Source of the DNA: Desulfobacterales bacterium
Lineage (GTDB): Bacteria; Desulfobacterota; Desulfobacteria; Desulfobacterales; C00003060
Direction of reading: 5' to 3'
Assembly: GCA_030616475.1 (NCBI GenBank)
Contig: JAUWXF010000001.1
Span: 6,845-70,844 of the forward strand
DNA length: 64,000 nucleotides
The translations under genes and the position numbers were made by a program. The notes under the pieces were generated by a model that searched no databases, was not told where the DNA came from, and worked only from the letters and a program-made list of their open reading frames with translations. Numbering within the stretch: the first letter of the stretch is position 1; every line of letters starts with the position of its first letter. Positions 41,845-59,406 of this stretch are shown here, in pieces.

Positions 41845-44800
41845 TTACCCCCTTGCACCGCCTGCCTGAATCGCTGCAAATATCTGCCGATCGCGGAAAT
41901 GCTGCATATCAATAGCCTTTTGCGGGCAAGCCGCGGCACAGCTCCCACAACCCTTACATACTGCTGAGATATTTTCGGCTCTATACCCTTTCCCGGGTAT
42001 CTTCTCAAGGCGTATAGCGCCAAAAGGACACGATGTCTCACACAAGCCGCATCCAATACAGAGATCCTGGTCAACGACCGATACAATAGGTTCTATTTCC
42101 ACATATTTTTGCGCCAGGATGGTAGCAGCTCGAGCTGCTGCCGCCTCAGCCTGGGCGATGCTTTCCTCAATCGGTTTGGGGTAATGGGCCATGCCGCACA
42201 CAAAAATACCATCCGTGGCAAAGTCCACAGGCCGGAGCTTCATGTGAGCCTCGAGGAAGAAATTGTCCTGGCTGATGGACACCTTGAAGATCTGGGCCAA
42301 TTCCTCAATCCCACGGGTATAGATGGCTGTGGCCAGGGTGATAAAGTCCGGCTTGAGGGTGATGGGCCGCTGGAGCACGTGATCCATTACCGTAACCTCC
42401 AGGGTGCCTCCCTCGGTTTCCCTGACGACCGGTTTATTCTCCAGGTCATAGCGAATAAAAATCACACCGAGGGCCCGGGCTTCTTTGTACAGATCTTCAC
42501 GTTCCCCGTAGGTTCGCATGTCCCGGTAGAGGATGTAGACATCTATGTCCGGGTTGCGTTTCTTTAGCTCCACCGCCTTCTGAACCGAGAAGGTGCAGCA
42601 AATCTTGCTGCAGTGAGGGCGCTCCGGTTCCCGGGAGCCGACACATTGAATGAAGACTGCACTGCCGGCGTTTTTGACCTGATCACTCTCCCATGCCTTG
42701 TCAAGCTCGTGCCACCGGAAGACCCGGTCATTCTTGCCGTAAAGGTACTCATCCGGCTTGATAGAATGGGCGCCGGTTGCCAGCACTGTTACGCCGTGCT
42801 CCACCTCGCGAACGTCCCCTCCACCATTCAGAGTGATGGCTGTCTTGAAGTTGCCGATGAAACCGGAAGCCTCCTTGACCTTAGCGTTGAGGTGCACCTC
42901 GATATTGTCGTGCCCGGTTACGTCATCTACGAGCTTGCTCACAAACTCCGGGACACCTTCGCCCTTCCACGTTTTCTTTAGCTTCAGGGCATGGCCACCC
43001 AGGTGTTCCTTCTCCTCGACAATGTGCACCTTGAATCCTTGCTGGGCCAGATTGAGGCCGCACACCATCCCGGCCACACCACCGCCCACCACCAAAGCCG
43101 CCGGGGTAACCGGCGCCGAGGGCACGGGCAGGGGCTCGATGAGTGAAGCCCGGGAAACTGCCATCCGCACCAGGTCCTTGGCCTTTTCAGTGGCAGCATC
43201 AGGATCACTCGAATGCACCCAGGAGCACTGGTCGCGGATATTGGCCTGCTCGAAAAGGTACTTGTTCAGGCTGCTGTTGCGCAAGGTTTCCTGGAAGAGC
43301 GGCTCATGGGTGCGCGGCGAGCAGGCGGATACTACCACCCGGTTGAGGTTCTGCTCCTTGATTACTTCAACCAATTGCTCAAGGGCATCCTGGGAACAGG
43401 AGAAGAGGTTCTCCTGAACATAGGTCACGTTCGGAAGCGTTTTGGCGTATTCGGCCACTTCAGGAACCCGCACCACACCGCCTATGTTCACCCCGCAATT
43501 GCAAACAAAAACACCGATACGGGCTGGCTCAGCACTGATATCCCGCTCCTCGGGGAAAGTCTTTTCCTTTACCAGGGTGTGACGCGCCCCGGCAAGCCTG
43601 CTCCCTGCCGCACCCGCGGCAGCCGAGGCCTCCATCACCGAATAAGGAATATCTTTGGGGCCCTGCAAGGCTCCGCAGGCATAGATCCCGGGAACAGACG
43701 TATTCACAGGGGCAAAGCTGGCGGTGCGGGCAAATCTGTAATGATCCAGATCGATTCCCAGCTTCTCTGCCAGCTCTGCTGCACCAGGAGGGGACTCAAG
43801 CCCGACAGAGAGCACCACCATGTCAAACTCTTCTGTTTCGGCCCTGCCGTCTTCCGTAGCGTAGCGAATCTTCAGGTTATCTGAACCGGCCACAGGGTCA
43901 ATAGTGTGCACCCGGCAGCGTATGAAACGGACACCACTTTCTTTTGCCCGGTTGTAATACTGATCGAATTCCTTCCCATAAGTGCGCATGTCCATGAAAA
44001 AGATGGCCGTCTCCAGCCCGTCTTTGGCATGCTCCCTGGCAATGACCGCCTCCTTGATTGCGTACATGCAACAGACACCTGAACAGTAAGCATTGTCACA
44101 GCGGTTGATGTCTCGGGAGCCCACGCACTGGAGCCAGGCAATCTTTCTGGGGGCATGGGACGCTGCCTCTTTCTCTTTTAGCGCGGCGAGCTTGCCGTCC
44201 GAGGCGGCAAACTTTTCAGCCAGCGAGGCCCAGCTTTTATAATCCTCGTCCTCGGCTCCCGCTTTGAACTGCTCGACTACCTCGGCAGTGGGCTTGCCGT
44301 GCTTTTTTTCCAGTTGTTTCAACTGGCGGTCCAGTTTTTTCAGCCCTTTCTCCGCCTTAACAATCTCTTCCCGGAGGGCCAGGTCAGAAGGTCTCTCCAC
44401 GTGACCGGCAGTAGGACCGCCTGCACTCAAGAGTCGTTCAAACTCCATGGAGGTGATCACATTGGGTTGACTGGCATAAGCGTAAGCCTCAAACTGGCGG
44501 GGATCGAAGGTCTTAAAGCCGGTGGCCAGGATAACGGAACCGACTTCCAGGTTCAGAAGCTGCTCTTTTTGCTCGAAGTCAATCGCATCGGAGGGACAGA
44601 GCTTGGCACAGACCTCGCACTTTTTTCCGTCGCCCAAAAGGCGGCACTTCTCAGCGTCGATAGCATAGCCCGACGGAATCGCCTGGGGATAGAGCTTGTA
44701 AATTGCCTTGCGCTTGGCAAGGCCTTCATTGAATTTGTCCACCACCACCTTCGGGCACTTTTCCGCACAAGTGCCACAGGCGGTGCATTTGTCCAGATCG

Positions 44801-45126
44801 ACGTACCGGGGTTTCTCCCGAACCGTTACCTGGAAATGGCCTTCTTCACCGGTGACGCTTTCCAGCTCCGCAGAGGTAATCAGATTGATATTGAGATGCC
44901 GGCCGACCTCGACCAGCTTGGGGGAGATGATTCACATGGCGCATTCGTTGGTGGGGAAGGTCTTATCAAGCTGTGCCATGCCCCCACCGATAGCGGAGTT
45001 TTTTTCCAGAAGATGAACATAATAGCCTGAATTGGCCAGATCCAGGGAAGCCTGCATCCCGGCTATGCCACCGCCCACGACTAAAACCGACCCGACGGCC
45101 CCTTTGCCAGGTTCTTTGTTTTTCAT
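41845..45126 (-). CDS. Double HdrA-like flavoprotein (QmoA-like + QmoB-like fusion, 1093 aa) with an in-frame TGA (predicted Sec) at 44932..44934
   Basis: Track ORFs 44932..45126 (..[11 protein letters not shown]) and 41845..44748 share one frame. The bridging translation is [65 protein letters not shown]. The hairpin GAGGUCGGCCGGCAUCUC (44893..44910) lies 21 nt 3' of the UGA. Confidence 0.9.
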
Positions 45127-45448: not shown

Positions 45449-45532
45449 GCCCGCCCTGCCCGCCCTGGCGCGACAGAAGCTGGAGCATGCCACAGAGAGA
45501 AAAACCCGGTCTGGGCCAGGGTCTGGGCTAGG
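45449..45532 (+). repeat. Family-1 element
   Basis: GCCCGCCCTGCCCGCCCTGGCGCGACAGAAGCTGGAGCATGCCACAGAGAGAAAAACCCGGTCTGGGCCAGGGTCTGGGCTAGG. Confidence 0.85.
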
Positions 45533-46094: not shown

Positions 46095-46460
46095 ATGACA
46101 TCAAAGGGAGAACAAGCGTTCGCATTTGCCCTTGCGGCGATATTACTCGTCGTAGGCGTTGTATGCTATGCCGCCTTTCCGCAAGAAGAACCTGAAGAAC
46201 CTGTAAGACTCATGTTCAAGAGCACTGCTGGAAAGATCTTGTTTGATCACAAAACCCATACTGCCGACGCAGGGTATGGCATTGCGTGCGATGATTGCCA
46301 TCACGAAGAGCAGGAAGGTTCCAGCTCGTGTAGTGGTGAGGACTGCCATGGCCCGGACAGCGACCCAAAAAGGGGCGATGCCCTGCACACCAATTGCAAA
46401 GGCTGCCACGAAGAGAGCGGGGCAGGTCCGGTCGAATGTGCGACATGTCATGTTATGTAG
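46095..46460 (+). CDS. Small membrane-anchored tetraheme cytochrome c (c3-type)
   Basis: 121-aa ORF with an N-terminal hydrophobic helix AFAFALAAILLVVGVVCYAAF. Heme motifs are CDDCH, CSGEDCH (Cx4CH), CKGCH and CATCH, with extra His residues (FDHKTH). Confidence 0.85.
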   Translation: MTSKGEQAFAFALAAILLVVGVVCYAAFPQEEPEEPVRLMFKSTAGKILFDHKTHTADAGYGIACDDCHHEEQEGSSSCSGEDCHGPDSDPKRGDALHTNCKGCHEESGAGPVECATCHVM

Positions 46461-46485
46461 CGGGCACCTGGGATAATGGAATGTT

Positions 46486-46550
46486 GGCCCGCCCTGGCGC
46501 GACATGAGAATAATAAGCGGTGCCATGTAAAAACCCGGTCTGGGCCAGGG
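46486..46550 (+). repeat. Family-1 element (variant loop)
   Basis: GGCCCGCCCTGGCGCGACATGAGAATAATAAGCGGTGCCATGTAAAAACCCGGTCTGGGCCAGGG. Confidence 0.8.
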
Positions 46551-46614
46551 AATACTGGGCACGAAGTGAAGCTGCGCGCTATATTGGGTTAAGAGGAACT
46601 TTCTTAATTTTCGA

Positions 46615-46655
46615 GCGGCGAAGCCGCGTTACATAAAATCGCGAAGCGATTTTAT
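46615..46655. repeat. Family-5 double mini-hairpin upstream of rnfC
   Basis: GCGGCGAAGCCGCGTTACATAAAATCGCGAAGCGATTTTAT, with both loops reading GAA. Confidence 0.8.
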
Positions 46656-46668
46656 AAAGGGTTAAGCT

Positions 46669-47934
46669 ATGATAAAGAGATCTTTTTTAGGTTTGGCCAA
46701 GCCGAGGTTACAGTACAATCTGGTTCCAGATCCGATCCAGGAGCTTCCAATTCCAGGCACTGTTACATTGTTGTTGAAAGAGCCGCAAAACGGAGGGGGT
46801 GCAACCGCTCTCAAAGTTGGCGATGCTGTCAAGACGGCCCAGAGACTCGCCGCATCACCGGACAGTGCCGAATATGTCATTTCATCGGTGACGGGAACCG
46901 TATCGGCCATGGCCCCTTATATTGATGCCTATGGCCAGAAATACACTGCCATCACCATCCAGGCCAGCGGCCAGGACGACTGGGATGATGAGTTCAAAAA
47001 GGAACAGACCATTGATACGGCCCTGAAGTTTTTTGAATACGCCCCCGGAAGCCCTTCTTTCAAGCCGTTTGCCGATCCCGAAAAGAGCATACGGACCATC
47101 GTCGTAAATGGGATGGATCAGGATTTACTCCTTACAGCCAATCAATATGCTGTCCAGAATGAGGCCGCTGAGATCAAGAGCGGTGTTCAAGCCTTAAGAA
47201 AGATGACAGGCGTGGACCGGATTGTTATCACAGTGCCAGACATCTTAGTTCAGCAAGCCAATACCACAGGTGCAGAAGTTAAGACTGTCAGCGCCACCTA
47301 TCCTGACGGCCTCCCTCATATGATCATGAAAGAGGTGGTCGGCCAGGTGGTCCCAGGTGGTAACACCCCGGAGGACCAGGGTGTTTCCTTTATAAGCGCT
47401 GAAGCCGCGGCGGCATTAGGGGCTGCTTTTGAGACCGGCCAGCTTCGCGTTACTAAGGTCGTGACCGTGGTGGGAAAAGACGGCAAGACTACCAATGTTA
47501 GGACCCGAATCGGCACGCCCTTGAGGGATGTCCTTCAAGCTTGTAATGTCTCGCTGAACGATCGGGATCGTCTCATCCTGGGGGGGGCAATGAGAGGCGC
47601 CGCCACCTATTCCGTAGACCTGCCAATAGAACCCCGCACAGACGGCATCGTGGTTCAGGATGAGGCCGATAGCGCCCAGACCACGAATTATCCGTGCATC
47701 AACTGTGGTGAATGTATCAGGATCTGTCCGGTTAAGATCCCGGTGAACATGCTCGTCAGGTTCCTGGAGGCTCGCCTTTATGAAGACGCGGCGGCCATGT
47801 ACGATCTGGAATGCTGTATCGAGTGCGGGTTATGCTCGTATGTCTGTATATCCAGAATTCCTATTTTCCAATATATTATGCTCGGAAAGTATGAACTTGG
47901 CCTGATCAAGACAGCGGAGGCAGCATCAGCCTGA
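46669..47934 (+). CDS. rnfC: RnfC-like subunit with a degenerate nucleotide/FMN-binding region
   Basis: 421-aa ORF, first in the C-D-G-E-A-B order, with C-terminal CINCGECIRICP and CIECGLCSYVC. The region where RnfC normally has G-G-A-G-F-P-T and N-G-A-E-C-E-P-Y reads APGSPSFKPF and NGMDQDLL (about nt 47041..47142). Confidence 0.8.
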   Translation: MIKRSFLGLAKPRLQYNLVPDPIQELPIPGTVTLLLKEPQNGGGATALKVGDAVKTAQRLAASPDSAEYVISSVTGTVSAMAPYIDAYGQKYTAITIQASGQDDWDDEFKKEQTIDTALKFFEYAPGSPSFKPFADPEKSIRTIVVNGMDQDLLLTANQYAVQNEAAEIKSGVQALRKMTGVDRIVITVPDILVQQANTTGAEVKTVSATYPDGLPHMIMKEVVGQVVPGGNTPEDQGVSFISAEAAAALGAAFETGQLRVTKVVTVVGKDGKTTNVRTRIGTPLRDVLQACNVSLNDRDRLILGGAMRGAATYSVDLPIEPRTDGIVVQDEADSAQTTNYPCINCGECIRICPVKIPVNMLVRFLEARLYEDAAAMYDLECCIECGLCSYVCISRIPIFQYIMLGKYELGLIKTAEAASA

Positions 47935-47953
47935 TCGAAACTCTGGAGGCACT

Positions 47954-48922
47954 ATGAATAATGAAAAGAAACTTGTTGTTGCTCACGCCCCTTATTGGCA
48001 TGACGGCAGCAAGATATCGACAAAGAATTACAATATCATAATTGCCGCACTTCCGGCCGTGTTGATGGGCATTAGCCAGTACGGAGCACCGGCTCTCGCG
48101 GTGATTGCCTTTGCCATGGCCTGTGCCATGATCTGGGAAGTCATCATGAATCTTGTCCTGAGAAGGCCTATTCCCATTGGCGACGGCAGCGCTGCGGTGA
48201 CCGGGCTGCTCCTGGGGATGCTTATGCCTGCCACTGCGCCCTGGTGGGTAATTGCCCTGGGAACCTTTATTGCCATTATCGTGGGCAAACAGATATTCGG
48301 CGGAATCGGGTTTAATCCATTGAATCCTCCCCTACTCGCCCTGGCTATGCTCGTCATCTCGTTCAAGGGTGTCTTTGATTTTAACGTAGCCCTTCGCCAT
48401 TATGATCTGGGTTTTGTCATGACTTATCCCCTGGCCGATCTAAAGTACTTTGGCACAGAGGCCATTGCAAAGTTTAGCCTGGGCGATCTCATTATGGGCA
48501 GACAGGCAGGGGCCGTTGGATCCACATTCGGCCTGGGACTCATTGTAGGGGGCCTCTACCTTATGTTAAGAGGATATACGCGATGGGAGATCTCCCTTTC
48601 TTTCCTGGCAGGCGTGTTTATTACCGCCCTCCTGTTTAACCTCTCCGATCCCGCAAAATACGCCGGGCCGTTTTTCCACCTGTTTACGGGTTATACATTG
48701 ATCGCGGCCTTTTTCCTGGTGCCCGAGGACTCTTCATCTCCGGCTAACTTTATCCCCATGCTCATCTTTGGGGCGTTGGCCGGCCTGGGGACCGTACTTA
48801 TAAGAAATGTCGGGGTTTATGTGGATGGTATTCCTTTTTCCATCCTCCTCATGAATCTTGCTAATCCGCTTTTTGACAGAATTAGACCCAAAGCGATTGG
48901 AAAGGTGGTAGAAAATGCGTGA
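47954..48922 (+). CDS. rnfD: RnfD-like integral membrane subunit
   Basis: 322-aa polytopic hydrophobic ORF between rnfC and rnfG. Confidence 0.85.
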   Translation: MNNEKKLVVAHAPYWHDGSKISTKNYNIIIAALPAVLMGISQYGAPALAVIAFAMACAMIWEVIMNLVLRRPIPIGDGSAAVTGLLLGMLMPATAPWWVIALGTFIAIIVGKQIFGGIGFNPLNPPLLALAMLVISFKGVFDFNVALRHYDLGFVMTYPLADLKYFGTEAIAKFSLGDLIMGRQAGAVGSTFGLGLIVGGLYLMLRGYTRWEISLSFLAGVFITALLFNLSDPAKYAGPFFHLFTGYTLIAAFFLVPEDSSSPANFIPMLIFGALAGLGTVLIRNVGVYVDGIPFSILLMNLANPLFDRIRPKAIGKVVENA

Positions 48923-49508
48923 TGTCATCAGGATGATTGTGGTTCTGGCCACTCTGGCGGCCGTTTCCGGATTCGTGCTGTGGGGTGTTAAAACAGGCAC
49001 TGCGGCAAAAATCGAATACCAGCAGCTAAAGTTTGTAAAAGGCCCTGCCATAATAGAGATCTTGCAAGGATGCACCAACGACCCGATCGTTGATCGTTTC
49101 AAGATCAAAGACGGTGAAATAGAGAGGAGCTTTTATGTCGGGGTATTCGATGGCAAGGCGAATGCCGTAGCCTATGAGACCTTTGGCAAAGGCTTTGGCG
49201 GAGACATTGGCGTCATGGTGGGTGTCAACCTTGAGACGGATGAATTATTGGGTATGGGTGTCACCACCCACGCTGAGACCCCGGGCCTCGGTTCCAGGGC
49301 AAAAGATGATCCGTCTTTCAGGGCGCAGTTCAAGGGTTTGTCCATCACTGAGCCTATGAAGGTTAAACCGGACGGGGGGCAGATAGATGCAGTATCAGGC
49401 GCTACGATAACATCAAGGGGTGTGTGCCAGGGTGTTACGGACAGCGCAGAATTGTATAGCAGACTGAAGCCGCAAATCATAGAGCAAGCCAGGACCTTTG
49501 CTCAATAG
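48915..49508 (+). CDS. rnfG: RnfG-like FMN-binding subunit
   Basis: 197-aa ORF with an N-terminal anchor and the SGATITS flavinylation-type motif. It overlaps the rnfD stop by 8 nt. Confidence 0.85.
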   Translation: MRDVIRMIVVLATLAAVSGFVLWGVKTGTAAKIEYQQLKFVKGPAIIEILQGCTNDPIVDRFKIKDGEIERSFYVGVFDGKANAVAYETFGKGFGGDIGVMVGVNLETDELLGMGVTTHAETPGLGSRAKDDPSFRAQFKGLSITEPMKVKPDGGQIDAVSGATITSRGVCQGVTDSAELYSRLKPQIIEQARTFAQ

Positions 49509-49652
49509 TGTCCATCCAGAAATGGTAAGTTTTGTCACAAGACAAGGCCGCACAAAGGTTTCTACCGCAGTCGTAGCAACGCTACGTCGAGGATAGAAAC
49601 CTGCGGAGAACGCAGTATTGGGGCAAAAGATGCCGTTTCTGGATAGACACTA
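49506..49652 (+). other. Highly structured intercistronic element between rnfG and rnfE
   Basis: A 20-nt outer stem pairs UAGUGUCCAUCCAGAAAUGG (49506..49525) with CCGUUUCUGGAUAGACACUA (49633..49652): 18 Watson-Crick pairs, 1 G-U and 1 mismatch. It encloses small hairpins TTGTC-ACAA-GACAA, CGTAGC-AAC-GCTACG and CTGCG-GAGAA-CGCAG. Confidence 0.7.
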
Positions 49653-49668
49653 AATAGGGAGAAGAGTA

Positions 49669-50307
49669 ATGGCCAAAACAGTTGTTCAAGAATTTACCAA
49701 GGGGTTATGGGAGGAGGTCCCGCCTTTCAGACTTGTCCTCGGGCTGTGTCCGGTGTTGGCGGTGACCAAAACGGTGGCAAATGGCATCGGCATGGGGATT
49801 GCGACCACCTTTGTTCTTGTGTGTTCGAATATCCTGGTCTCTGTGCTTCGTAAGATCATACCAAGCCAGGTGAGGGTGCCCATTTTCATCATCATCATCG
49901 CGACCTTTGTGGTGGTCGTGGAACTCGTGATGCAGGCAGTAGCCTATGAGCTTTTTCTGCTGCTTGGGATCTTTATCCCCTTAATTGTGGTGAACTGTAT
50001 TATCCTTGGCCGGGCCGAGGCCTTTGCCTCCAAGAATGGCGTGTTACCATCAGCAGCAGACGGGCTCGGTATGGGCATCGGATTTACGATTTCCCTCGGT
50101 GTGCTGTCCGCTATTCGTGAGGCCTTCGGTAGTGGTACCTTCTCCATTCCATTCCCAGAGCAACTCGCTCCACTATTCGGGATAGATCCAGTCATTCAAC
50201 TGTTCGGGCCGTCCTTTCAGCCCTTTACGTTCATGGTTGAGGCCCCTGGCGCCTTTGTCTGCCTGGGCCTAATGCTCGCTGTGATGAATCTGTTTGGAAA
50301 AAAGTAA
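49669..50307 (+). CDS. rnfE: RnfE-like membrane subunit
   Basis: 212-aa hydrophobic ORF in the conserved position before rnfA. Confidence 0.85.
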   Translation: MAKTVVQEFTKGLWEEVPPFRLVLGLCPVLAVTKTVANGIGMGIATTFVLVCSNILVSVLRKIIPSQVRVPIFIIIIATFVVVVELVMQAVAYELFLLLGIFIPLIVVNCIILGRAEAFASKNGVLPSAADGLGMGIGFTISLGVLSAIREAFGSGTFSIPFPEQLAPLFGIDPVIQLFGPSFQPFTFMVEAPGAFVCLGLMLAVMNLFGKK

Positions 50308-50322
50308 TTAAGGAGTAGTCAG

Positions 50323-50898
50323 ATGGGAGATTATATTTTACTTGCCGTAGGCGCCATCCTGGTCAACAACATCTTGCTGATTCAGTACCTGGGTAACTGC
50401 CCCTTTCTGGGCACATCCAAGAAGATGGAGACCGCTACGGGGATGGCCATGGCCGTGGTCTTTGTCCTTGCCCTGGCAGGTATTATCACGTGGATCTTCG
50501 AGGCAGTCTTCCTGAAGCCGTTGGGCCTTGAGTATATCAGGACGATCGTATTCATCGTGGTGATCGCGTCGCTGGTGCAGTTCGTGGAAACCTTCATGAA
50601 GAAGAGCATCCCGGCACTTTATGCGGGCCTGGGTATCTTTCTCCCCCTCATTACTACCAACTGTGCGGTCATGGGTGTGTGCCTGATCAATATCAAGGAA
50701 GAGTATAACTTCCTGGAGATGCTTGTCTCCGCTATAGCCTACCCGGCTGGTTTTGGCCTTGCCCTGATTCTGTTTGCCGGGGTACGCGAGAGAATCATCA
50801 TAGGACGGGTGCCCGGGCCGTTGCAGGATGTTTCGATTGCCCTGGTTACGGCTGGATTTATGTCCCTTTCGTTTCTTGGGTTTAAAGGGATGATTTAG
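50323..50898 (+). CDS. rnfA: RnfA-like membrane subunit
   Basis: 191-aa hydrophobic ORF, paralogous in pattern to rnfE. Confidence 0.85.
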   Translation: MGDYILLAVGAILVNNILLIQYLGNCPFLGTSKKMETATGMAMAVVFVLALAGIITWIFEAVFLKPLGLEYIRTIVFIVVIASLVQFVETFMKKSIPALYAGLGIFLPLITTNCAVMGVCLINIKEEYNFLEMLVSAIAYPAGFGLALILFAGVRERIIIGRVPGPLQDVSIALVTAGFMSLSFLGFKGMI

Positions 50899-50899
50899 T

Positions 50900-50997
50900 G
50901 GATTGAATATTGACGATTGATGATTGACGATTGACAATTGAATATTTGAGGATCGAGGCTTGTTTTTACAATCTTCAATCGAAAATCGTCAATTGAT
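50900..50997. repeat. Stutter-hairpin element (GATTGACGATTG family) between rnfA and rnfB
   Basis: GGATTGAATATTGACGATTGATGATTGACGATTGACAATTGAAT faces CAATCTTCAATCGAAAATCGTCAATTGATTGG. Confidence 0.75.
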
Positions 50998-51019
50998 TGG
51001 TCCGGTTTAGGAGGAAGAA

Positions 51020-53110
51020 ATGTTAGAAGCCTTACTTCTCATGATGGGTTTAGGAGGTGTCGCCGGAACATTGCTGGGGGTTGCCTCCAGGATATTTTAT
51101 GTGTGGGAGGATCCCCGCATTGCGGAGGTAGAAAACTGTTTGGCCGGTGCTAACTGCGGTGGGTGCGGCTTTACTGGATGCGCTGCCTGCGCAAAGGCTA
51201 TTGTGGAGGGTAGAGCGGATGTGGGTGCCTGTCTCGTAGCGGGCGCGGATGGTGCAGCAAAGGTGGCTGCCGTTCTGGGTTTGGAGGCCGGCGCAGCCGA
51301 GCCGCTCACGTCACAAAACACCTGTACGGGCGGATTTAGGGCGCCTGAGAAATTCTCTTATATGGGCGTTAACGATTGCCGGGCTGCCTACCTGCTTTAT
51401 GCAGGGGCCAAGGATTGCGATGTGGGTTGCCTCGGGTTTGGGAGTTGTGTGAAGGCATGCCTGTTTGACGCCCTTAAGATTGGGCCTGATGGTTATCCTG
51501 TGGTTGACGCGGAAAAATGCGTGGGTTGCGGCGCCTGCGAAAAGGCATGCCCCAAGGGGATCATGCAGGTGCGCAAACCTTCTGATCGAATTCTCCATGT
51601 GAATCTTGTTACCGATCGTCTGGCCCCATGCCGTCAGACCTGCCCTGCTGAGATCAACATTCCCAAATATATCCACCATATTAGGAATAAGGAATACGAC
51701 AAGGCCTATCTGACCATTATGGAGCGCAATCCAATGCCCCTGTCTACGGGCCGGGTCTGTCCTCATCCGTGCGAAGATGCCTGTCGCAGGGCGTTGGCCG
51801 ATGATCCGGTTTCCATCAACCAACTGAAACGGTTCTGCTCAGACTGGGTCTACGATGAAGGGGCACAGGTGAAGATCCCTGTGGCACCTGATACGGGATA
51901 CAAGGTAGCCATTGTGGGTGGAGGGCCGAGTGGTCTTACGGCTGCCTATTTCTTGCGGCGCCTCGGCCACAAGGTAAAGATCTTTGAGTGGTTGCCCAAG
52001 TTAGGGGGGATGATCTACTACGGTATTCCCGAATACCGCCTGCCTAAAGAGATCCTTTACAAAGACATTAATCGGATTCTTGATCTCGGTATTGAGGTCA
52101 AGACCGACGTAAAATTCGGTGTGGACTTTGATCTTGAATCCCTTGTGGGAGGCGGTTTTGATGCCGTCCTCATGTCGATCGGGGCCATGAATCATGCCTC
52201 TGCCAGGATACCTGACGAAGACAAGGTCAAGGGAGTGGTCCCGGCCACAGACTTTCTTAGAAAACAGGGTTTGGGAGATCCGTATCGGGTCGGAAAAAAG
52301 GTTGGGATCATCGGCGGCGGGAATGTCGCTATGGATTGCTTGAGGTCCAGCGTTCGCCTGGGCGCTGAGAAGGTCTACTGCCTCTATCGGCGGACAATCA
52401 AGGAGATGCCTGCCAATGTGGTGGAGATAGAGGCGTGTGAGCACGAGGGGATCGAGTTTATTACTTTGTGTACCCCAACCAAGTTCACAACGGATGATGA
52501 GGGAAACCTCACAGGTATTGAATACCTGAAAAATGAGTTAGGAGAACCGGATGCGAGCGGCAGGCGCAAGCCCGTACCCATCGAAGGCTCTGAGACCGTG
52601 ATCCCCCTTGATAACTTTATCCTGGCAATAGGTCAGACCACCGATTCAGCCTTTGCGGATAAAGAAGGGACCGCAGTATCGAGGCTTGAAACCAAGAGGG
52701 GCTCGATTCTGAATGATCCGGATACTCATCAGACAGCCATCCCTTACGTGTTTACCAGCGGGGACTCCGCAGGACCTCCCGGGCTTTTGGTTGCGGCCAT
52801 TGGGGCCGGTAGGCGAGCTGCCAGGGGAATCCATAAGTATCTCATGGGAGAGGATATGGCATTTCCTCCGGCAAGGCTTCGGGTGGACTCAAGGCGCATG
52901 AAAGGTCACATACCCGGTACGATCTTCGATAGCATCGAGGGCATCAAGAAAAAAGGCCGCATTGCCCAGCCCGAGCTGGAGCCAGGCTCTTACGAAAGGC
53001 AGCATACTTATGCCGAGGTGGACCTGACGGTTACCGAGGAGGAGGCCCTGAAAGAGGCCAACCGTTGCATGCGGTGCTGTCTTACGTGTTATAACAAAGA
53101 CGCTAGATAA
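51020..53110 (+). CDS. rnfB: RnfB-like FeS subunit fused to an NfnB/GltD-like NAD(P)H:FAD module
   Basis: 696-aa ORF. It has an N-terminal anchor, CGGCGFTGC and CVGCGACEKACP (RnfB-type). The fused module has CPHPCEDAC, IVGGGPSGL, GGGNVAMD, DASGRRKP and a C-terminal EANRCMRCC. Confidence 0.85.
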   Translation: MLEALLLMMGLGGVAGTLLGVASRIFYVWEDPRIAEVENCLAGANCGGCGFTGCAACAKAIVEGRADVGACLVAGADGAAKVAAVLGLEAGAAEPLTSQNTCTGGFRAPEKFSYMGVNDCRAAYLLYAGAKDCDVGCLGFGSCVKACLFDALKIGPDGYPVVDAEKCVGCGACEKACPKGIMQVRKPSDRILHVNLVTDRLAPCRQTCPAEINIPKYIHHIRNKEYDKAYLTIMERNPMPLSTGRVCPHPCEDACRRALADDPVSINQLKRFCSDWVYDEGAQVKIPVAPDTGYKVAIVGGGPSGLTAAYFLRRLGHKVKIFEWLPKLGGMIYYGIPEYRLPKEILYKDINRILDLGIEVKTDVKFGVDFDLESLVGGGFDAVLMSIGAMNHASARIPDEDKVKGVVPATDFLRKQGLGDPYRVGKKVGIIGGGNVAMDCLRSSVRLGAEKVYCLYRRTIKEMPANVVEIEACEHEGIEFITLCTPTKFTTDDEGNLTGIEYLKNELGEPDASGRRKPVPIEGSETVIPLDNFILAIGQTTDSAFADKEGTAVSRLETKRGSILNDPDTHQTAIPYVFTSGDSAGPPGLLVAAIGAGRRAARGIHKYLMGEDMAFPPARLRVDSRRMKGHIPGTIFDSIEGIKKKGRIAQPELEPGSYERQHTYAEVDLTVTEEEALKEANRCMRCCLTCYNKDAR

Positions 53111-53287: not shown

Positions 53288-53408
53288 GCCCGCCCTGGCG
53301 CGACAGAAGCCGGAGAATGCCCAGCAGAGAAAAACCCGGTCTGGGCCAGGGAAGCTGGAGCATGCCACAGAGAGAAAAACCCGGTCTGGGCCAGGGTCTG
53401 GGCCAGGG
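53288..53408 (+). repeat. Family-1 element with an internally duplicated core (1.5 copies)
   Basis: GCCCGCCCTGGCGCGACAGAAGCCGGAGAATGCCCAGCAGAGAAAAACCCGGTCTGGGCCAGGG is followed by AAGCTGGAGCATGCCACAGAGAGAAAAACCCGGTCTGGGCCAGGGTCTGGGCCAGGG. Confidence 0.85.
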
Positions 53409-53563: not shown

Positions 53564-54538
53564 GTGAACAGGTTACTCGGAGAAATATCGCGCAGGGACT
53601 TCATGAAGTACTGTGCAACCACTGCGGCCGTTTTGGGTCTTTCAGAGCTTGAGTTCGCAACCAGGGTTTCAGAAGTCCTGGCTGCCGCCCCCGCAAAGCC
53701 TCCTGTAATCTGGCTTGAAGGCCAGGATTGCGCCGGGTGCTCGATTTCATTTGCAGGCTCCCTTAACCCGCCCTTTGCTTCCATGATCCTGGACAGGGTA
53801 TCGGTCAGATATCACGAGACCATCATGGCGGCTTCAGGGCATGTGGCAGAGGCGGCATATCACGAAGCCGTTGAAGCAGGCGGCTTTGTATTGGGTGTGG
53901 AAGGATCGATCCCCACGGCCGATGACCGCTTTTGCATGGTAGGGGGTCGCCCCTTCAGGGAAATGGTAGAGGAGGCCGGGGCAAAGGCGGCCGCTATTAT
54001 TGCGGTTGGTGCGTGTGCCGCATACGGTGGCATCCCGGCAGCCGGCCCAACCGGTGCTGTCGGGGTCAGCAAGATCATTAAGGACAAACCGGTCATCAAT
54101 CTTCCCACCTGTCCGGTCCATTGCGATCACCTGATAGGTACCATCCTGTACTATCTAACCACCGGATCAGTTCCACCCCTTGACAAGTTGGGCCGTCCAA
54201 AGATGTATTTTGGGGAGCTTATCCATGACAACTGCAGGCGGCGATCCTATTTTGACAATGAGCAGTTCCTGACAGACTGGAACGATCCTGCCCAGAAGAA
54301 CTGGTGTCTATATGAAAAGGGCTGTAAAGGGCCTGACACCTATGCGGACTGCCCTGTGCGCAGGTGGAACGACGGGCTGAATTTTTGCATCGACTGCGGG
54401 GCCGGGTGCATGGGGTGTGCTGAGCCGGGATTTTATGCTGAGATGAGTCCTCTGTACACGGCAGAGAGCGAGCGGTCACTGAACATTATGGCTCGAAAAG
54501 CGGCCGGGTTGATTCCGCCGCTGAAAGAAAAGGTATGA
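53564..54538 (+). CDS. Periplasmic [NiFe] hydrogenase small subunit (Tat signal; GTG start)
   Basis: 324-aa ORF. The twin-arginine motif is SRRDFMKYCATTAAVLGL. EGQDCAGCSISF and further Cys ligands are present. The GTG lies 7 nt after AAGGAGG. No C-terminal membrane anchor is evident. Confidence 0.9.
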   Translation: MNRLLGEISRRDFMKYCATTAAVLGLSELEFATRVSEVLAAAPAKPPVIWLEGQDCAGCSISFAGSLNPPFASMILDRVSVRYHETIMAASGHVAEAAYHEAVEAGGFVLGVEGSIPTADDRFCMVGGRPFREMVEEAGAKAAAIIAVGACAAYGGIPAAGPTGAVGVSKIIKDKPVINLPTCPVHCDHLIGTILYYLTTGSVPPLDKLGRPKMYFGELIHDNCRRRSYFDNEQFLTDWNDPAQKNWCLYEKGCKGPDTYADCPVRRWNDGLNFCIDCGAGCMGCAEPGFYAEMSPLYTAESERSLNIMARKAAGLIPPLKEKV

Positions 54539-54554
54539 AAGGAGGTGGTAAAAG

Positions 54555-56117
54555 ATGGGAAAGAAAATAGTTGTTGATCCGGTAACAAGGATTGAGGGAC
54601 ACCTCAAGATAACAGTTGAAGTCGAAAACGGTAAGGTCAAAGATGCCTGGAGCAGCGGCACCATGGCGCGCGGCATTGAGGCCCTTCTTCAGGGGAAAGA
54701 CCCGAGAGATGCCCCTTTTGTAACCAGCCGCTTATGCGGTGTATGCTACAGTGTTCACCAACTTACGGGGTGCTATGCGCTGGATGAAGCCTTTGGGGCC
54801 AGGGTGCCCTGGGGCGGTACGCTCCTGAGGAATCTGGCCATGGGTGCCCAGTATATCTATGACCATGTTCTCCATTTTTACCACCTCAGCGCCCTTGACT
54901 ATATCGATATCATGGCCGTAGCCGCGTATAAGGGCAAGGACAAGGCCCTGATCGCGGTAAAGGACAAGATAGTCGGCCTGGTCAAGGCAAAGGACACCTT
55001 CCCCCTCACACCCCGGTATAAACCGGACGAATTCTGTGTGACGGACCCGGAAATGGTGATTTCAGCAGTCAAGCACTATATAGACGCCCTTTCCGTGCAT
55101 GCCAAGGCCCGGAATATGGGCGCCATCTTTGGAGGCAGGCAGCCGCACTACCAGAGTATTGTGGTGGGTGGTTTTACACAGTTGCCCGACGTCAACCAGG
55201 TGGCTATGTTCCGCGCTATGCTTGATGAGCAGGCTAAGTTTGTCAACGATGTTTATATCCCGGACGTACTTGCCTTCGGGATGGGCCCGCTCTTCCCCCT
55301 GGCCAAGGCAGGCTTGGGCGGGGGCCATTACAACTATCTCTCTTATGGAGCGTTTGCCTTGGATAAGGCGGGTAAAGAGCAGGTTTTTCCGCCAGGGGTT
55401 ATCGTGGGCTTGAACCCTGCCAACATCAAGGTTGATCGATTTGATCCCAACAAGGTCACCGAATCGGTAAAATATGGCTGGTATAAGAAAGATAAACCCC
55501 GGCATCCGTACAAGGGGAAGCAGGTATTTGATCTTGACAAGAAGGACGCCTATTCTTTTGTCAAGGCCCCTCGCTATAAGGGCAAGCCCATGGAGGTTGG
55601 GCCGCTGGCACGGATGCTAATAGCCAAGAATCCGGATGTCCTGGGATTGGTAGCAAAGGGTGTAAAACCGGGTGTGGTCGCGCGTCATGCGGCCCGCGCC
55701 ATTGAGACCAAACTGGTCGTGGATGCTTGCTACAAGTGGTTGGATGAACTCCTTTCGGAAATGACCAAGCCGGGATTCAAGATCCACGATACAGCGCACT
55801 GGGAGCCTCCGAATACTGGTATGGGTGCCGGATTCTATGAGGCACCGCGCGGTGCACTGGGTCACTGGGTTAAGATCAAGGACAAAAAAACCGCCAACTA
55901 TCAAATGGTAGTCCCTTCGACCTGGAACGCATCACCCAGGTGTGAGAAAAAGCTGAGGGGGCCATATGAAGAAGCCTTGATAGGCGCGCCGGTACCAGAC
56001 CCGGACAATCCGATCAATGTGGTGCGCATAGTCCGTTCCTTTGATCCCTGTCTGGCGTGTGCCATCCACCTAATCGATCCAAAGACTAACGAAATCAAGA
56101 AATTCCTTGTAGAATGA
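54555..56117 (+). CDS. [NiFe] hydrogenase large subunit
   Basis: 520-aa ORF with N-terminal RLCGVCYSVH and C-terminal DPCLACAIH Ni-binding motifs (Cys, not Sec). Confidence 0.95.
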   Translation: MGKKIVVDPVTRIEGHLKITVEVENGKVKDAWSSGTMARGIEALLQGKDPRDAPFVTSRLCGVCYSVHQLTGCYALDEAFGARVPWGGTLLRNLAMGAQYIYDHVLHFYHLSALDYIDIMAVAAYKGKDKALIAVKDKIVGLVKAKDTFPLTPRYKPDEFCVTDPEMVISAVKHYIDALSVHAKARNMGAIFGGRQPHYQSIVVGGFTQLPDVNQVAMFRAMLDEQAKFVNDVYIPDVLAFGMGPLFPLAKAGLGGGHYNYLSYGAFALDKAGKEQVFPPGVIVGLNPANIKVDRFDPNKVTESVKYGWYKKDKPRHPYKGKQVFDLDKKDAYSFVKAPRYKGKPMEVGPLARMLIAKNPDVLGLVAKGVKPGVVARHAARAIETKLVVDACYKWLDELLSEMTKPGFKIHDTAHWEPPNTGMGAGFYEAPRGALGHWVKIKDKKTANYQMVVPSTWNASPRCEKKLRGPYEEALIGAPVPDPDNPINVVRIVRSFDPCLACAIHLIDPKTNEIKKFLVE

Positions 56118-56284
56118 TCGGTATTGACCAATTTGATACCTCTGAACGAGTTAACACCTCCTCCCAAACCCTCCTTGAAGGGGAGGGCAGGGTGGGGGTG
56201 AAAAAAGCAAATCCCTATGCAATCGACTTGGGCGGGGGCAGCAATGTCCCCCCAAAAAACTCAACGTGTGGTTACTTGGAAAAT

Positions 56285-56391
56285 TCCCCCTAACCCCCCT
56301 TCCCGCCTGCCAACGCCACGTAGGGCATGCAGCTTACATGCAAGCGTACCTGGCAATGGCGGGCAGGTCCAAAAGGGGGGAGGGGGGGATT
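56285..56391. repeat. Long hairpin (C-rich arm / family-6 core / G-rich arm) between the hydrogenase large subunit and the protease gene
   Basis: TCCCCCTAACCCCCCTTCCCGCCTGCC ... GGCGGGCAGGTCCAAAAGGGGGGAGGGGGGGAT. Confidence 0.7.
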
Positions 56392-56411
56392 TTAATGGTG
56401 TTGCTACGATT

Positions 56412-56891
56412 ATGAATGTACCAACCGCACAGGTCGAAAAAATTGTCGTCTTAGGGGTAGGCAACCTGCTATTGTCTGACGAAGGCGTAGGTGTGCATGT
56501 GGCCAATAAGATGATGGAGATGAACCTGCCTGCCGGCGTAGAGGTAGTGGAGGGGGGAACCGATGGTTTTGGGCTCATGAATGTTGTAACAGGAGCAGAA
56601 CGGGTTATAGTCGTTGATGCGGTAAAGGCCGGGGGGGCCCCTGGTTCGATCTACCGGTTTGACATCAAGGATGCGCCTTCATATCCTGATGCTTATAAGA
56701 CCTCGGTTCACCAGATTGGGATTCTGGAGGTAGTTCACCTCTCAGAACTCATCGGCCAGACCCCTGAAACCACGATCATCGGGGTTGAACCCAAATCCCT
56801 GGACATGGGCATGGAACTCTCACCCGAGGTGCAGGCCAAGCTTCCAAGGATTATCGAACTGGTCCTGGACGAGGTCAAGCGCCCTGCGTGA
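56412..56891 (+). CDS. Hydrogenase maturation endopeptidase (HyaD/HybD-type)
   Basis: The track ORF starts at 56217, but 56217..56411 is repeat DNA. The in-frame ATG at 56412 gives MNVPTAQVEKIVVLGVGNLLLSDEGVGVHV.., typical of this protease family. Confidence 0.8.
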   Translation: MNVPTAQVEKIVVLGVGNLLLSDEGVGVHVANKMMEMNLPAGVEVVEGGTDGFGLMNVVTGAERVIVVDAVKAGGAPGSIYRFDIKDAPSYPDAYKTSVHQIGILEVVHLSELIGQTPETTIIGVEPKSLDMGMELSPEVQAKLPRIIELVLDEVKRPA

Positions 56892-56955
56892 AACTTCGCT
56901 GGAGCAGCGGAGCATACGAACAGTCAGCGTAGAACTAGAGCATAAGAAAACAAGA

Positions 56956-57978
56956 TTAACAAATGCGCGGAAGCTGTTCTCCTGTAAGCATGTCCACGAT
57001 CCGGCTTCCTCCGATACGCGTTTTCATAAAGACCTTGCCGGGCGAATCGGCAACGACCTCCCCTATGATGCAGGCGTCTTTTCCGTATTTGCTCGCTTTA
57101 ATCGTCTCCAATACCTTTTCCGCATGATTTGGTCCCACAAAGGCAAGGAGTTTTCCCTCATTGCCGATATAAAGGGGATCAAATCCCAGAAGTTCACATA
57201 TTCCTGAAACTTCTTCTCGGATGGGCAAGGCTTCCTCGTAGATCTTTATTCCCACCTTTGACTGGGCGGCAATCTCGTTCAGCGAGGTTCCCACACCCCC
57301 GCGGGTCGGATCCCTCAGGGCATGAATTTGGTCGCTTGCACCGATCATTTTGCGTACCATGTGGTTTAAGGGGGCAGTATCGCTTCGTATCGGGGATTCA
57401 AAGGTCATCCCTTCCCTTTGGGTCAACACGGTAATGCCGTGATCGGCAATAGTTCCACTGATGATAACCATGTCTCCAGGACGGGCGTTATGCGCGGAAA
57501 TATTTATCCCCTCTGGGATGAGCCCGATCCCGGAGGTGTTGATAAATATCTTGTCTGCTGCCCCGTTCGGCACCACCTTGGTATCGCCGGTGACAATCAG
57601 AACATCGGCCTTTATTGCCGCTTCCTTCATCGCTCTGAGTATCTTTTTCAAGTCAGCTAAAGAAAAGCCTTCTTCGATGATCAACCCTACGCTCAGATAA
57701 AGGGGGGTTGCCCCGCACATGGCAAGATCGTTTACCGTGCCGTTGACGGCAAGGTGTCCGATGTTTCCACCCGGAAAAAAAATCGGATCAACCACATAGG
57801 TGTCGGTCGAAAAGGCGAGCCGCTTTCCTTCAATATCAAGGACGGCGCTGTCATTGAGTTCCGCAAGGATCGGGTTGTCGAACTCGGGGACCAAAAGATC
57901 GGCTATCAGGCTATGAGATGCCTTTCCTCCACTCCCGTGATCCAGAAGAATCTTATCCGTGCTCATGGGTAAATCCAT
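56956..57978 (-). CDS. hypE: Hydrogenase maturation protein HypE
   Basis: 340-aa ORF with ..DHGSGGK.. and the C-terminal PRIC motif, next to hypA/hypD. Confidence 0.9.
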   Translation of the reverse strand: MDLPMSTDKILLDHGSGGKASHSLIADLLVPEFDNPILAELNDSAVLDIEGKRLAFSTDTYVVDPIFFPGGNIGHLAVNGTVNDLAMCGATPLYLSVGLIIEEGFSLADLKKILRAMKEAAIKADVLIVTGDTKVVPNGAADKIFINTSGIGLIPEGINISAHNARPGDMVIISGTIADHGITVLTQREGMTFESPIRSDTAPLNHMVRKMIGASDQIHALRDPTRGGVGTSLNEIAAQSKVGIKIYEEALPIREEVSGICELLGFDPLYIGNEGKLLAFVGPNHAEKVLETIKASKYGKDACIIGEVVADSPGKVFMKTRIGGSRIVDMLTGEQLPRIC

Positions 57979-57986
57979 ACTATTCC

Positions 57987-58328
57987 TTACTCAGCCTCGA
58001 TATGGGTTATTTGAAGCTCTTTTCCCGAGATGATTTCACTGGCAATCCCCCCACATTCGGGACAGAGAAAAAAGAAGCTATCCACTTCAAAGTCTGTGTT
58101 GCAATTATGACATCGTCCCCTGGCAGGTACAACCTCTATGTCAAGTCCGGCCCCTTCAGCTACAGTCCTCTCTGAGATCACCTGAAAAGAAAAGGTCAGG
58201 GCCTCAGGAACAATGGCGGAAAGGGTCCCTATCCGGACACACACTCGGGTAACCCGGGAGACCCCGTGTTTTTTGCTTTCATCTTCGACGATCTTGAGCA
58301 GGCTTTGGGCAATGGAAAGTTCATGCAT
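57987..58328 (-). CDS. hypA: Hydrogenase nickel-insertion protein HypA
   Basis: The internal start MHELSIAQSLL.. gives 113 aa with CHNC..CPEC zinc motifs. The longer track ORF (to 58532) would overlap hypD. Confidence 0.85.
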   Translation of the reverse strand: MHELSIAQSLLKIVEDESKKHGVSRVTRVCVRIGTLSAIVPEALTFSFQVISERTVAEGAGLDIEVVPARGRCHNCNTDFEVDSFFFLCPECGGIASEIISGKELQITHIEAE

Positions 58329-59403: not shown

Positions 59404-59406
59404 ATT

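Follow-up and report, generated by a model that had tools for sequence, protein, structure and literature searches.

How does an Rnf complex work when the nucleotide-binding motifs of its RnfC subunit have been replaced, its RnfB subunit carries an added pyridine-nucleotide module, and a cytochrome gene stands at the head of its gene cluster? The question is raised by a 64,000-nucleotide stretch of a Desulfobacterales genome (assembly GCA_030616475.1, contig JAUWXF010000001.1, positions 6,845 to 70,844; hereafter, the window). Between window positions 46095 and 53110, seven tightly packed plus-strand genes follow one another in the order cytochrome-rnfC-D-G-E-A-B, each preceded by a plausible ribosome-binding site. 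Pfam and NCBIfam profiles assign all seven, among them the full set of six Rnf subunits (C, D, G, E, A, and B; 46669–53110). An RnfB of about 700 residues with a pyridine-nucleotide domain, an altered RnfC, and a small cytochrome c3 gene are all encoded here, and by the match to this published set of features the cluster is another member of the Rnf2, or Tol2-type, complexes of sulfate reducers.

This architecture is known from Desulfobacula toluolica Tol2 (Wöhlbrand et al., 2016, Proteomics, pmid 26792001, as relayed in PMC5109826). According to that relayed account, RnfB of the Tol2 type is about 700 residues long and includes an NAD-binding domain, and RnfC lacks the NADH/flavin mononucleotide (FMN) and soluble-ligand-binding domains and would have to work with something else than NAD+/NADH. 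The rnf2 cluster encodes an acidic cytochrome of 15 kDa (Dörries et al., 2016, BMC Genomics, PMC5109826). A 2025 study in Science Advances gave the complex the name Rnf2, placed it in the Desulfobacteraceae core genome, found it abundant and constitutive in six Desulfobacteraceae strains, sets out the long RnfB, the changed RnfC, and the cytochrome side by side in its supplement, and proposed that electrons leave Rnf2 by way of the cytochrome and then reach Qrc (PMC11887813). Proteomic detection of the complex is reported in both sources (PMC5109826, PMC11887813); a review of RNF and NQR complexes from the same year does not mention sulfate reducers (PMC12174285). A sequence-only reading of the window had taken the combination of an RnfB–NfnB fusion with a cytochrome to be undescribed; it has in fact been published as Rnf2 (Wöhlbrand et al., 2016, in the form relayed; PMC5109826; PMC11887813). 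What we add to the published description is a change in RnfD, a conserved RnfC site with a predicted fold, a fixed association with the cytochrome, and the likeness of the added RnfB module to the NfnABC/Stn enzymes.

We compared the window proteins with the canonical Rnf complexes of Acetobacterium woodii (9eri), Clostridium tetanomorphum (7zc6), and Azotobacter vinelandii (8ahx). RnfC aligns over its full length with the three solved RnfCs (8ahx_C, 7zc6_C, and 9eri_C; HMMER, E-values 3e-39 to 1e-36). Opposite the canonical ‘GIVG(L/M)GGA(I/T)FP’ the window has ‘YAPGSPSFKPF’, with a four-residue deletion adjoining the loop, and opposite ‘NG(S/A)ECEPYLT’ it has ‘NGMDQDLLLT’. Both [4Fe-4S] cysteine motifs, CINCGECIRICP and C(C)IECGLCSYVC, are intact. 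The alignment thus upholds two statements of the sequence-only reading, that RnfC is without the canonical FMN/NADH motifs and that it keeps its iron-sulfur (FeS) motifs. The protein scores 208.5 bits on the rnfC profile TIGR01945, under the cut-off of 245.95, and a Pfam scan of it did not detect the SLBB domain (PF10531) that canonical RnfCs have. A partial Complex1_51K match is weak (41.9 bits, cut-off 31.2), and the same profile does about as well on the cofactor-free second domain of NqrA (34.6 bits). The N-terminal feature of RnfC treated in a paper on ANME is a different one and has no bearing on these motifs.

To follow these motifs through relatives, one genome per GTDB species was scanned with the RnfC alignment; at least 592 relatives were found, and the best 80 loci were analysed. 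The nearest of these belong to the Desulfobacteria/Desulfobacterales, with the top match to RnfC (91% identity) in a Desulfobacteria metagenome-assembled genome, from which the source would be an uncultured member of that class. The pattern xPGxxx / GxDxD(L/I/P) is present in all 80 loci. In homologues down to 53% identity, P126, G127, G148, and D152 never vary, and D150 is nearly invariant (at least 90% of sequences). A more distant survey drew on a library of 1.8 billion proteins: among the best 150 representatives at the 50% identity level, the motifs are non-canonical in most, even where identity to the query is as low as about 30%, and RnfCs with GxGGAxFP and ECEPY emerge only at about that level. 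An AF2 model of the window RnfC (predicted local distance difference test score [pLDDT] 85.2, predicted template-modelling score [pTM] 0.88) matches solved RnfCs with Foldseek template-modelling (TM) scores of 0.76–0.79 and NqrA with about 0.65. The Rnf2 papers call the RnfC domains ‘absent’, whereas in this predicted structure they are present but altered, with the fold kept, and the conservation pattern argues for a binding site that is rebuilt and conserved, not decaying. The sequence-only reading had called the site ‘degenerate’, a description that suits the loss of the canonical motifs and does not suit the replacement motifs, which are themselves conserved.

RnfB is a single uninterrupted open reading frame (ORF) of 696 residues (51020–53110, plus strand) in which PF04060, PF14691, and PF07992 all match. 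Its first 195 residues align with RnfB of A. woodii (9eri_B 1–192, 166.5 bits) and C. tetanomorphum (7zc6_B 8–194, 151.4 bits) and comprise a membrane helix (residues 2–26), the PF04060 FeS domain (41–72), and a 2x[4Fe-4S] ferredoxin domain (approximately 133–181); all FeS cysteines of this part are invariant in an alignment of 40 fused RnfBs. Residues from approximately 197 to 690 align end to end with NfnB (4ylf_B, 46–462 of 468) and NfnL (5jca_L, 49–473 of 474). This added module contains a Fer4_20 two-cluster domain (C204, C208, C247, C251, C255, and K270), a flavin adenine dinucleotide (FAD) motif GGGPSG (300–305), an NAD(P)H motif GGGNVAMD (432–439) followed by YRR (456–458), and a C-terminal motif C683-x2-C686-C687-x2-C690, of which C683, C686, and C690 are present in all 40 fused proteins. 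The full-length GltD/NfnB alignment, together with both Rossmann motifs, corroborates the claim of the sequence-only reading that RnfB has gained a complete FeS–FAD–NAD(P)H module.

Among structures in the PDB, the module is closest to NfnA of Caldicellulosiruptor saccharolyticus (9bov_A, 375 bits), NfnA of Thermococcus sibiricus (9n5u_A, 362 bits), and StnC (8oh5_C, 326 bits); the classical NfnB/NfnL structures 4ylf_B and 5jca_L rank below these (296 and 294 bits). The NfnL-like domain of C. saccharolyticus NfnA binds NADPH and has its FAD where a single FeS wire ends, a placement stated for NfnABC/Stn to be incompatible with bifurcation, and its cluster A7 is ligated by C108/C147/C151/K170 (PMC11829005). 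In the window, C208/C247/C251/K270 align with these ligands and are invariant in fused RnfBs, the FAD and NADPH motifs align as well, and the C-terminal cysteine motif aligns with the RCxxC motif of NfnA/StnC; the latter would, we presume, supply ligands to the second GltD cluster. The closest counterpart of the added module is the domain by which NADPH enters NfnABC/Stn, and by homology its substrate would be NADPH. Unlike the module here, which sits on a membrane-anchored RnfB, that of NfnABC/StnABC is fused to an Fdh/NuoG-like domain within a soluble bifurcating enzyme. A structure model of RnfB averages a pLDDT of 75 and is of low confidence wherever an FeS site lies.

Fused RnfB homologues form more than 100 protein clusters (55–96% identity, approximately 100% coverage, 681–712 residues) from Desulfobacterales, Syntrophales, and related metagenome-assembled genomes. 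Complete fused genes with a conserved junction occur in 39 of the best 80 loci, including the complete chromosome of the cultured Desulfonema magnum, which has the same cluster with an RnfC of 48% identity (locus L067). An assembly artefact, which the sequence-only reading had named as grounds for dismissing the fusion, is ruled out by the full-length clusters, the complete genes, and this closed chromosome; the fusion is genuine. Four of the fused RnfBs (loci L045, L054, L073, and L075; 687–736 residues) form a subgroup whose C-terminal half is 32–37% identical to that of the window and whose dinucleotide motifs are altered (GGGAEG; GGGKxAL; YRR absent). Their module may be a second, diverged or degenerating version.

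The cluster cytochrome matches class III cytochrome c (PF02085, E-value 9e-10, 39.2 bits, cut-off 22.9). It has four haem motifs, CDDCH (residue 65), CSGEDCH (79), CKGCH (101), and CATCH (115), and eight histidines in total, of which four lie beyond the haem motifs, fitting bis-His ligation of four haems; in these respects it conforms to a class III cytochrome c3, a type with four bis-His-ligated haems in about 100 residues. An N-terminal hydrophobic helix spans residues 8–26 (mean Kyte-Doolittle 2.63). Because this transmembrane helix and a juxtamembrane ‘YAAFP..P.R.MFK’ segment are both kept in related cytochromes, a membrane anchor is favoured over a cleaved signal peptide. The family match, the four haem motifs, and the helix agree with the earlier description of a membrane-anchored c3-type tetrahaem cytochrome gene ahead of rnfC. 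TmcA, the type II cytochrome c3, was considered as an identity for this protein and rejected (NF045722, 54 bits, cut-off 114). A homologous cytochrome gene with 4–8 haem motifs lies immediately upstream of rnfC in all 73 loci in which the region upstream of rnfC is present. In one of the two distant clusters described below (locus L082), the cytochrome gene immediately upstream of rnfC is a 144-residue ORF (7542–7976) with a transmembrane helix and four CxxCH motifs that the source gene caller missed, calling an overlapping 65-residue ORF instead; small cluster cytochromes of this kind may be under-annotated in surveys.

The remaining subunits differ in how closely they follow canonical Rnf. 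In A. woodii, T156 of RnfD is the covalent FMN site (PMC11889175). In the window, Tyr158 occupies the column of this threonine of canonical RnfD/NqrB (‘FVMTYPLADLK’, as against ‘TTATPLALLK’ in A. woodii and ‘TTATPLAILK’ in C. tetanomorphum). Across 79 sequences, the window included, the column holds Tyr in 75, Ser in two, and Phe in one, with no Ser or Thr conserved at the neighbouring position. This change is not mentioned in the relayed Tol2 account, PMC5109826, or PMC11887813, and the supplement of PMC11887813 terms the remaining Rnf2 subunits ‘very similar’. RnfG belongs to the NCBIfam subfamily built on Desulfovibrio vulgaris DVU2794 (NF045876 RnfG_DVU2794, 250.7 bits, cut-off 205) and also matches PF04205; its flavinylation motif S161-G-A-T164 is intact (‘AVSGATITS’ against ‘FAGATITP’ in 8ahx_G) and is retained in nearly all related loci. 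RnfE (180.5 bits against 9eri_E; TIGR01948, 246 bits, cut-off 213) and RnfA (206.6 bits against 9eri_A; TIGR01943, 238 bits, cut-off 229) retain the cysteines that align with the membrane [2Fe-2S] ligands of A. woodii: Cys27 (LGxCP) and Cys110 (VNCIIL) in RnfE, and Cys26 (LGxCPFLG) and Cys114 (TTNCAV) in RnfA.

The best 80 loci reveal which of these features travel together. RnfB is fused and lies 3′ of rnfA in 32 (four of them being those with the divergent C-terminal half), is fused and lies upstream of the cytochrome gene in seven, is an ordinary protein of 266–270 residues in seven, is interrupted by a contig end in six, and was not found in the fetched stretch in 28, mostly short contigs, although four of these 28 had at least 7 kb of downstream and about 10 kb of upstream sequence. 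The seven loci with an ordinary RnfB (L021, L024, L026, L036, L037, L052, and L060) form a clade that includes Candidatus Desulfaltia. They have the same altered RnfC and RnfD and the cytochrome, encode a polyferredoxin RnfB upstream, and have no pyridine-nucleotide site in any encoded subunit. A strict coupling of the altered RnfC to the RnfB–GltD fusion, which the sequence-only reading implied, is ruled out by these seven loci; in another clade rnfB is non-adjacent, in a third the fused rnfB lies upstream of the cytochrome gene, and several loci have no rnfB within 5–10 kb. Wherever the altered RnfC occurs in these loci, an altered RnfD and the cytochrome come with it without exception; the type of RnfB varies.

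The combination extends to two distant clusters whose RnfC is about 33% identical to that of the window, each with a cytochrome gene, a non-canonical RnfC, the RnfD tyrosine, and a fused RnfB. At these distant loci (L081/L082, 14030–17230; L083/L084, 10082–12994) the fused rnfB is followed directly by NuoE/NuoF-like genes and a molybdopterin formate-dehydrogenase/NuoG-like gene, which hints at a link of this Rnf type to an NAD(P)-dependent formate dehydrogenase or a Bfu-type enzyme. A profile search with the distant non-canonical RnfCs gave 43 matches, with no Desulfovibrio or Methanosarcina names among them, and none were found among the cluster members of 20 distant RnfC representatives.

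What might such a complex do? On balance, and judging from its sequence, we favour the view that the cluster encodes a cytochrome-linked Rnf2 that transfers electrons reversibly between ferredoxin or NAD(P)H and cytochrome c and couples this to the translocation of Na+ or H+. The membrane core is intact in sequence, with four [2Fe-2S] cysteines in RnfA/E and the flavinylation threonine in RnfG. On the cytoplasmic side, RnfB would be where electrons come in or go out, by way of ferredoxin or of the added NAD(P)H module; the architecture of this subunit is observed, and NADPH is suggested by homology. The module itself would be a plain, non-bifurcating NADPH entry wire, as in NfnABC/Stn. From RnfB the path would run through the [2Fe-2S] cluster of RnfA/E to RnfG-FMN and the membrane-anchored tetrahaem cytochrome, which would join the periplasmic cytochrome c3/Qrc/menaquinone network, as also proposed in PMC11887813. 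The canonical arm, from RnfD-FMN through RnfD-riboflavin, RnfC-FeS, and RnfC-FMN to NAD+, would no longer reduce NAD+; the residues of RnfC and RnfD have changed, and the cofactors would have been lost with them. RnfC would remain as an NqrA-like structural subunit holding two FeS clusters, so that an NQR-like solution, with pyridine nucleotide coming in on the RnfB/NqrF side and few cofactors in RnfC/NqrA, may have been reached independently. Substrates, direction, coupling ion, and cofactor content of Rnf2 are what we infer; the sequence features are what we observe. The two proposals of the sequence-only reading, that the pyridine-nucleotide site has shifted from RnfC to RnfB and that the complex exchanges electrons with periplasmic cytochrome c, would fit all of these findings.

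A precedent comes from Methanosarcina acetivorans, whose Rnf does not use NAD(P) and whose RnfG is the proposed donor to cytochrome c (PMC4023990; PMC12174285). This precedent fits together with the invariable presence of the cytochrome and with the NAD(P)H module that RnfB carries, and the ferredoxin/NAD(P)H:cytochrome c model is the best supported. A bolder statement, to which we give somewhat less than even credence, is that the whole cytochrome-linked clade has lost the covalent FMN of RnfD and the FMN of RnfC and works as a ferredoxin/NAD(P)H:cytochrome c ion pump, and not as a ferredoxin:NAD+ oxidoreductase. Electrons would turn at RnfG, RnfC would be the equivalent of NqrA but with FeS clusters, and Rnf would have been rewired in the manner of NQR a second time, independently; the clade takes in the constitutively abundant Rnf2 of marine Desulfobacteraceae.

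Several observations weigh against the favoured view. The eight FeS cysteines of RnfC are almost invariant, and the riboflavin-ligand positions of RnfD are retained as Asn and Glu, neither of which is expected of a purely vestigial arm. The rebuilt RnfC site is under selection, with D150 and D152 acidic where canonical proteins have E-x-E, and may bind a ligand. Since the FeS cysteines are nearly invariant and the new motif is conserved, RnfC is suggested to be still redox-related in some way, which is the strongest objection. NADPH (approximately -320 mV) and c3-type haems lie close in potential, so little driving force for ion pumping may be available from NAD(P)H to the cytochrome, except where a pull comes from the haems or the downstream quinone. 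In Desulfovibrio alaskensis, loss of the Rnf-linked cytochrome had no cost in fitness with H2, formate, or ethanol (PMC4841214). Finally, our literature search returned no enzyme activity, cofactor analysis, or structure for any Rnf2 member, so every redox step outlined here is a prediction.

The same near-invariant RnfC cysteines and retained RnfD Asn/Glu positions would suit an ion-coupled ferredoxin:NAD(P)+ Rnf that uses the full U-shaped path with its sites swapped, NAD(P)H reacting at RnfB-GltD, ferredoxin or another FeS protein at the RnfC clusters, and the cytochrome serving as a side exit. Such a complex would also explain why the RnfC fold is fully kept, and it would preserve the large potential span between ferredoxin and NADP for ion pumping. 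In solved complexes, however, the covalent FMN of RnfD forms the bridge from RnfG-FMN to riboflavin, and the threonine for it is replaced by Tyr in 75 of 79 sequences; RnfB retains its own ferredoxin-type domain; the small-RnfB clades have the same RnfC and RnfD changes and the cytochrome without any pyridine-nucleotide site; and a mere side exit sits poorly with a cytochrome that is invariably present. We regard the swapped arrangement as unlikely, though it deserves attention. The conservation of the replacement RnfC motifs, including two acidic positions, bears equally on the idea that the rebuilt site of RnfC continues to bind FMN and NAD(P)H, making this an ordinary ferredoxin:NAD+ Rnf with two accessory features. 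The weak Complex1_51K match and the fold similarity to RnfC agree with this idea, yet two of the three phosphate-loop glycines are replaced, two prolines are introduced beside the four-residue deletion, the ECEPY motif is gone, SLBB is undetected, the TIGR01945 score is under its cut-off, the Complex1_51K profile fits the cofactor-free NqrA domain about as well, and most members have gained a second complete NAD(P)H site on RnfB. Canonical function through a divergent site therefore strikes us as improbable.

A bifurcating Rnf, in which the NfnB-like FAD would split the electrons of NADPH between ferredoxin, by way of the RnfB clusters, and the membrane path to cytochrome c, is suggested by the homology of the module to NfnB/NfnL, whose FAD bifurcates in NfnSL, and by the conserved C-terminal cysteine motif, which could hold or complete an extra cluster. 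This we consider very improbable: in the closest relatives, NfnABC/Stn, the FAD stands at the end of a single wire (PMC11829005), no gene for an NfnA/NfnS-like [2Fe-2S]/FAD partner lies in or beside the cluster, and, judged from the conserved ligands, one FeS path alone leaves the FAD. That the RnfB fusion is mis-joined or frameshifted and RnfC a decaying pseudogene has a negligible chance of being right, given the uninterrupted 696 codons, the more than 100 homologue clusters, and the 39 complete fused genes with their conserved junction, an RnfC that is strongly conserved in its family and 98% identical to a metagenome protein, and the reported proteomic detection.

Comparison with characterised complexes sets the favoured cytochrome-linked reading in context. 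With canonical Rnf the cluster shares the six subunits, the RnfA/E cysteines, the RnfG site, the membrane-proximal FeS domain of RnfB, and the [4Fe-4S] motifs of RnfC; it differs in the replaced RnfC motifs, the RnfD tyrosine, the cytochrome gene in the cluster, and an FAD/NAD(P)H module in RnfB in place of extra ferredoxin domains. The Rnf-MmcA system of M. acetivorans likewise has a cytochrome c gene co-located and co-transcribed with rnfCDGEAB and two FeS motifs in RnfC, but it is archaeal, its larger and different multihaem cytochrome reduces methanophenazine, and its RnfB, as published, has no GltD fusion; the window proteins fall far below all rnf*_Methano equivalog cut-offs (for instance, rnfC_Methano, 144 as against 650). 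Closer in organization is Desulfovibrio Rnf (dhcA-rnfCDGEABF; D. alaskensis, D. vulgaris), which has the same gene order with a c3-family cytochrome first (PMC4841214) and whose RnfG founded the subfamily to which the window RnfG belongs. Unlike the window cluster, it has a decahaem cytochrome (in D. alaskensis), a small RnfB, and an apbE-like rnfF after rnfB, and its RnfB and RnfC domains are reported to be like those of A. woodii (PMC11887813).

Na+-NQR, an NADH:quinone oxidoreductase that translocates Na+, is similar in outline, in that an FAD/FeS module oxidises pyridine nucleotide and feeds an intramembrane [2Fe-2S] cluster and NqrA has no NAD/FMN function. The cluster is not itself a Na+-NQR, an identity ruled out by the lack of NqrF, the eight FeS cysteines of RnfC, and nqr equivalog scores far below their cut-offs. 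The added module is of the GltD type and fused to RnfB, RnfC keeps its FeS cysteines whereas NqrA has no clusters, NqrB keeps the covalent-FMN threonine, and the acceptor is quinone in NQR as against the cytochrome c proposed for Rnf2.

In marine sediments, much of the organic carbon is oxidised by Desulfobacteraceae. Models of Rnf2 still show a ferredoxin:NAD+ pump, and the features described here point elsewhere. If the cytochrome-linked reading is true, Rnf2 would provide the connection, so far missing, by which carbon oxidation in the cytoplasm is joined to sulfate reduction through the cytochrome/Qrc/menaquinone route, and estimates of energy yield for these bacteria would change. The finding is genuine and already published; its remaining interest lies in an environmentally important complex for which the RnfD change and the fixed cytochrome association give direct biochemical predictions. 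Coordinates of the features are collected in Table 1.

Table 1. Window coordinates of the Rnf2-type cluster, its diagnostic motifs, and the repeated element of the window.
Feature	Position (nt)	Strand	Basis or remark
Tetrahaem class III cytochrome c, 121 residues	46095..46460	+	PF02085
Haem motifs of the cytochrome	46287-46301, 46329-46349, 46395-46409, 46437-46451	+	CxxCH/Cx4CH
Copy of the repeated element in the 208-bp gap between cytochrome gene and rnfC	46529..46549	-	21-mer CCTGGCCCAGACCGGGTTTTT
RnfC-like subunit, 421 residues	46669..47934	+	Alignment with solved RnfCs
RnfC ‘APGSPSFKPF’, residues 125-134	47041-47070	+	Rebuilt FMN/NADH loop
RnfC ‘NGMDQDLL’, residues 147-154	47107-47130	+	In place of the ECEPY motif
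RnfC [4Fe-4S] motifs, C343-C353 and C383-C393	47695-47730, 47815-47847	+	Cysteine pattern
RnfD, 322 residues	47954..48922	+	PF03116, E-value 4e-86
RnfD Tyr158	48425-48427		Column of the covalent-FMN Thr
RnfG, 197 residues, periplasmic FMN subunit with N-terminal anchor	48915..49508	+	NF045876, PF04205
RnfG T164	49404-49406		Flavinylation motif
RnfE, 212 residues	49669..50307	+	TIGR01948
RnfA, 191 residues	50323..50898	+	TIGR01943
RnfB part of the fusion, residues 1-195	51020..51604	+	Alignment with 9eri_B and 7zc6_B; Pfam
GltD/NfnB(NfnL)-type module of the fusion, residues 196-696	51605..53110	+	PDB matches
C-terminal cysteine motif of the added module	53066-53089
Copies of the 21-mer CCTGGCCCAGACCGGGTTTTT	4847-4867	+	Exact match
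Copies of the 21-mer CCTGGCCCAGACCGGGTTTTT	45500-45520, 46529-46549, 53330-53350, 53375-53395	-	Exact matches

The surroundings of the cluster contain a recurring element. A scan for promoters and terminators gave consensus-level matches alone, the recurring hairpin being the 21-mer CCTGGCCCAGACCGGGTTTTT, which has five exact copies in the window as against none expected by chance. Each copy is a small GC hairpin followed by a run of T, and the sequence looks like a repetitive extragenic palindromic (REP)-like intergenic element. The gap from the cytochrome gene to rnfC holds one copy and two more follow rnfB, and the element accounts for the unusual length of the gaps around the rnf cluster compared with those of relatives. 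In the terminator scan the copy ahead of rnfC resembles a terminator hairpin of the minus strand, and it is probably without function for the cluster. Rfam and tRNA scans of the whole 64-kb window found nothing.

Upstream of the rnf genes, at least seven HdrA-like ORFs lie on the minus strand between 7067 and 45126, an unusual density, along with an HdrC/CCG-domain protein (35806–36936). The HdrA-like gene at 7067–10543 (minus strand) includes a response-regulator receiver domain. Two others (12344–15757 and 29378–31048, minus strand) carry a PRK12771 GltD-type NAD(P)H module 45% identical to that of RnfB, so the same type of module is found on three different FeS proteins within 64 kb. A further HdrA-like gene (41845–45126, minus strand, 1,093 codons) has a single in-frame TGA, codon 65, at a conserved cysteine position of HdrA. 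This codon probably specifies selenocysteine and the product is probably a selenoprotein; the selenocysteine insertion sequence (SECIS) models in Rfam gave no match for this gene. Directly 3′ of rnfB, in the region 53564–61921, are the small and large subunits of a [NiFe] hydrogenase with the twin-arginine translocation (Tat) motif RRDFMK, then a maturation protease, and then hypE, hypD, and hypF on the opposite strand. This periplasmic hydrogenase could feed electrons to the cytochrome pool beside the Rnf cluster.

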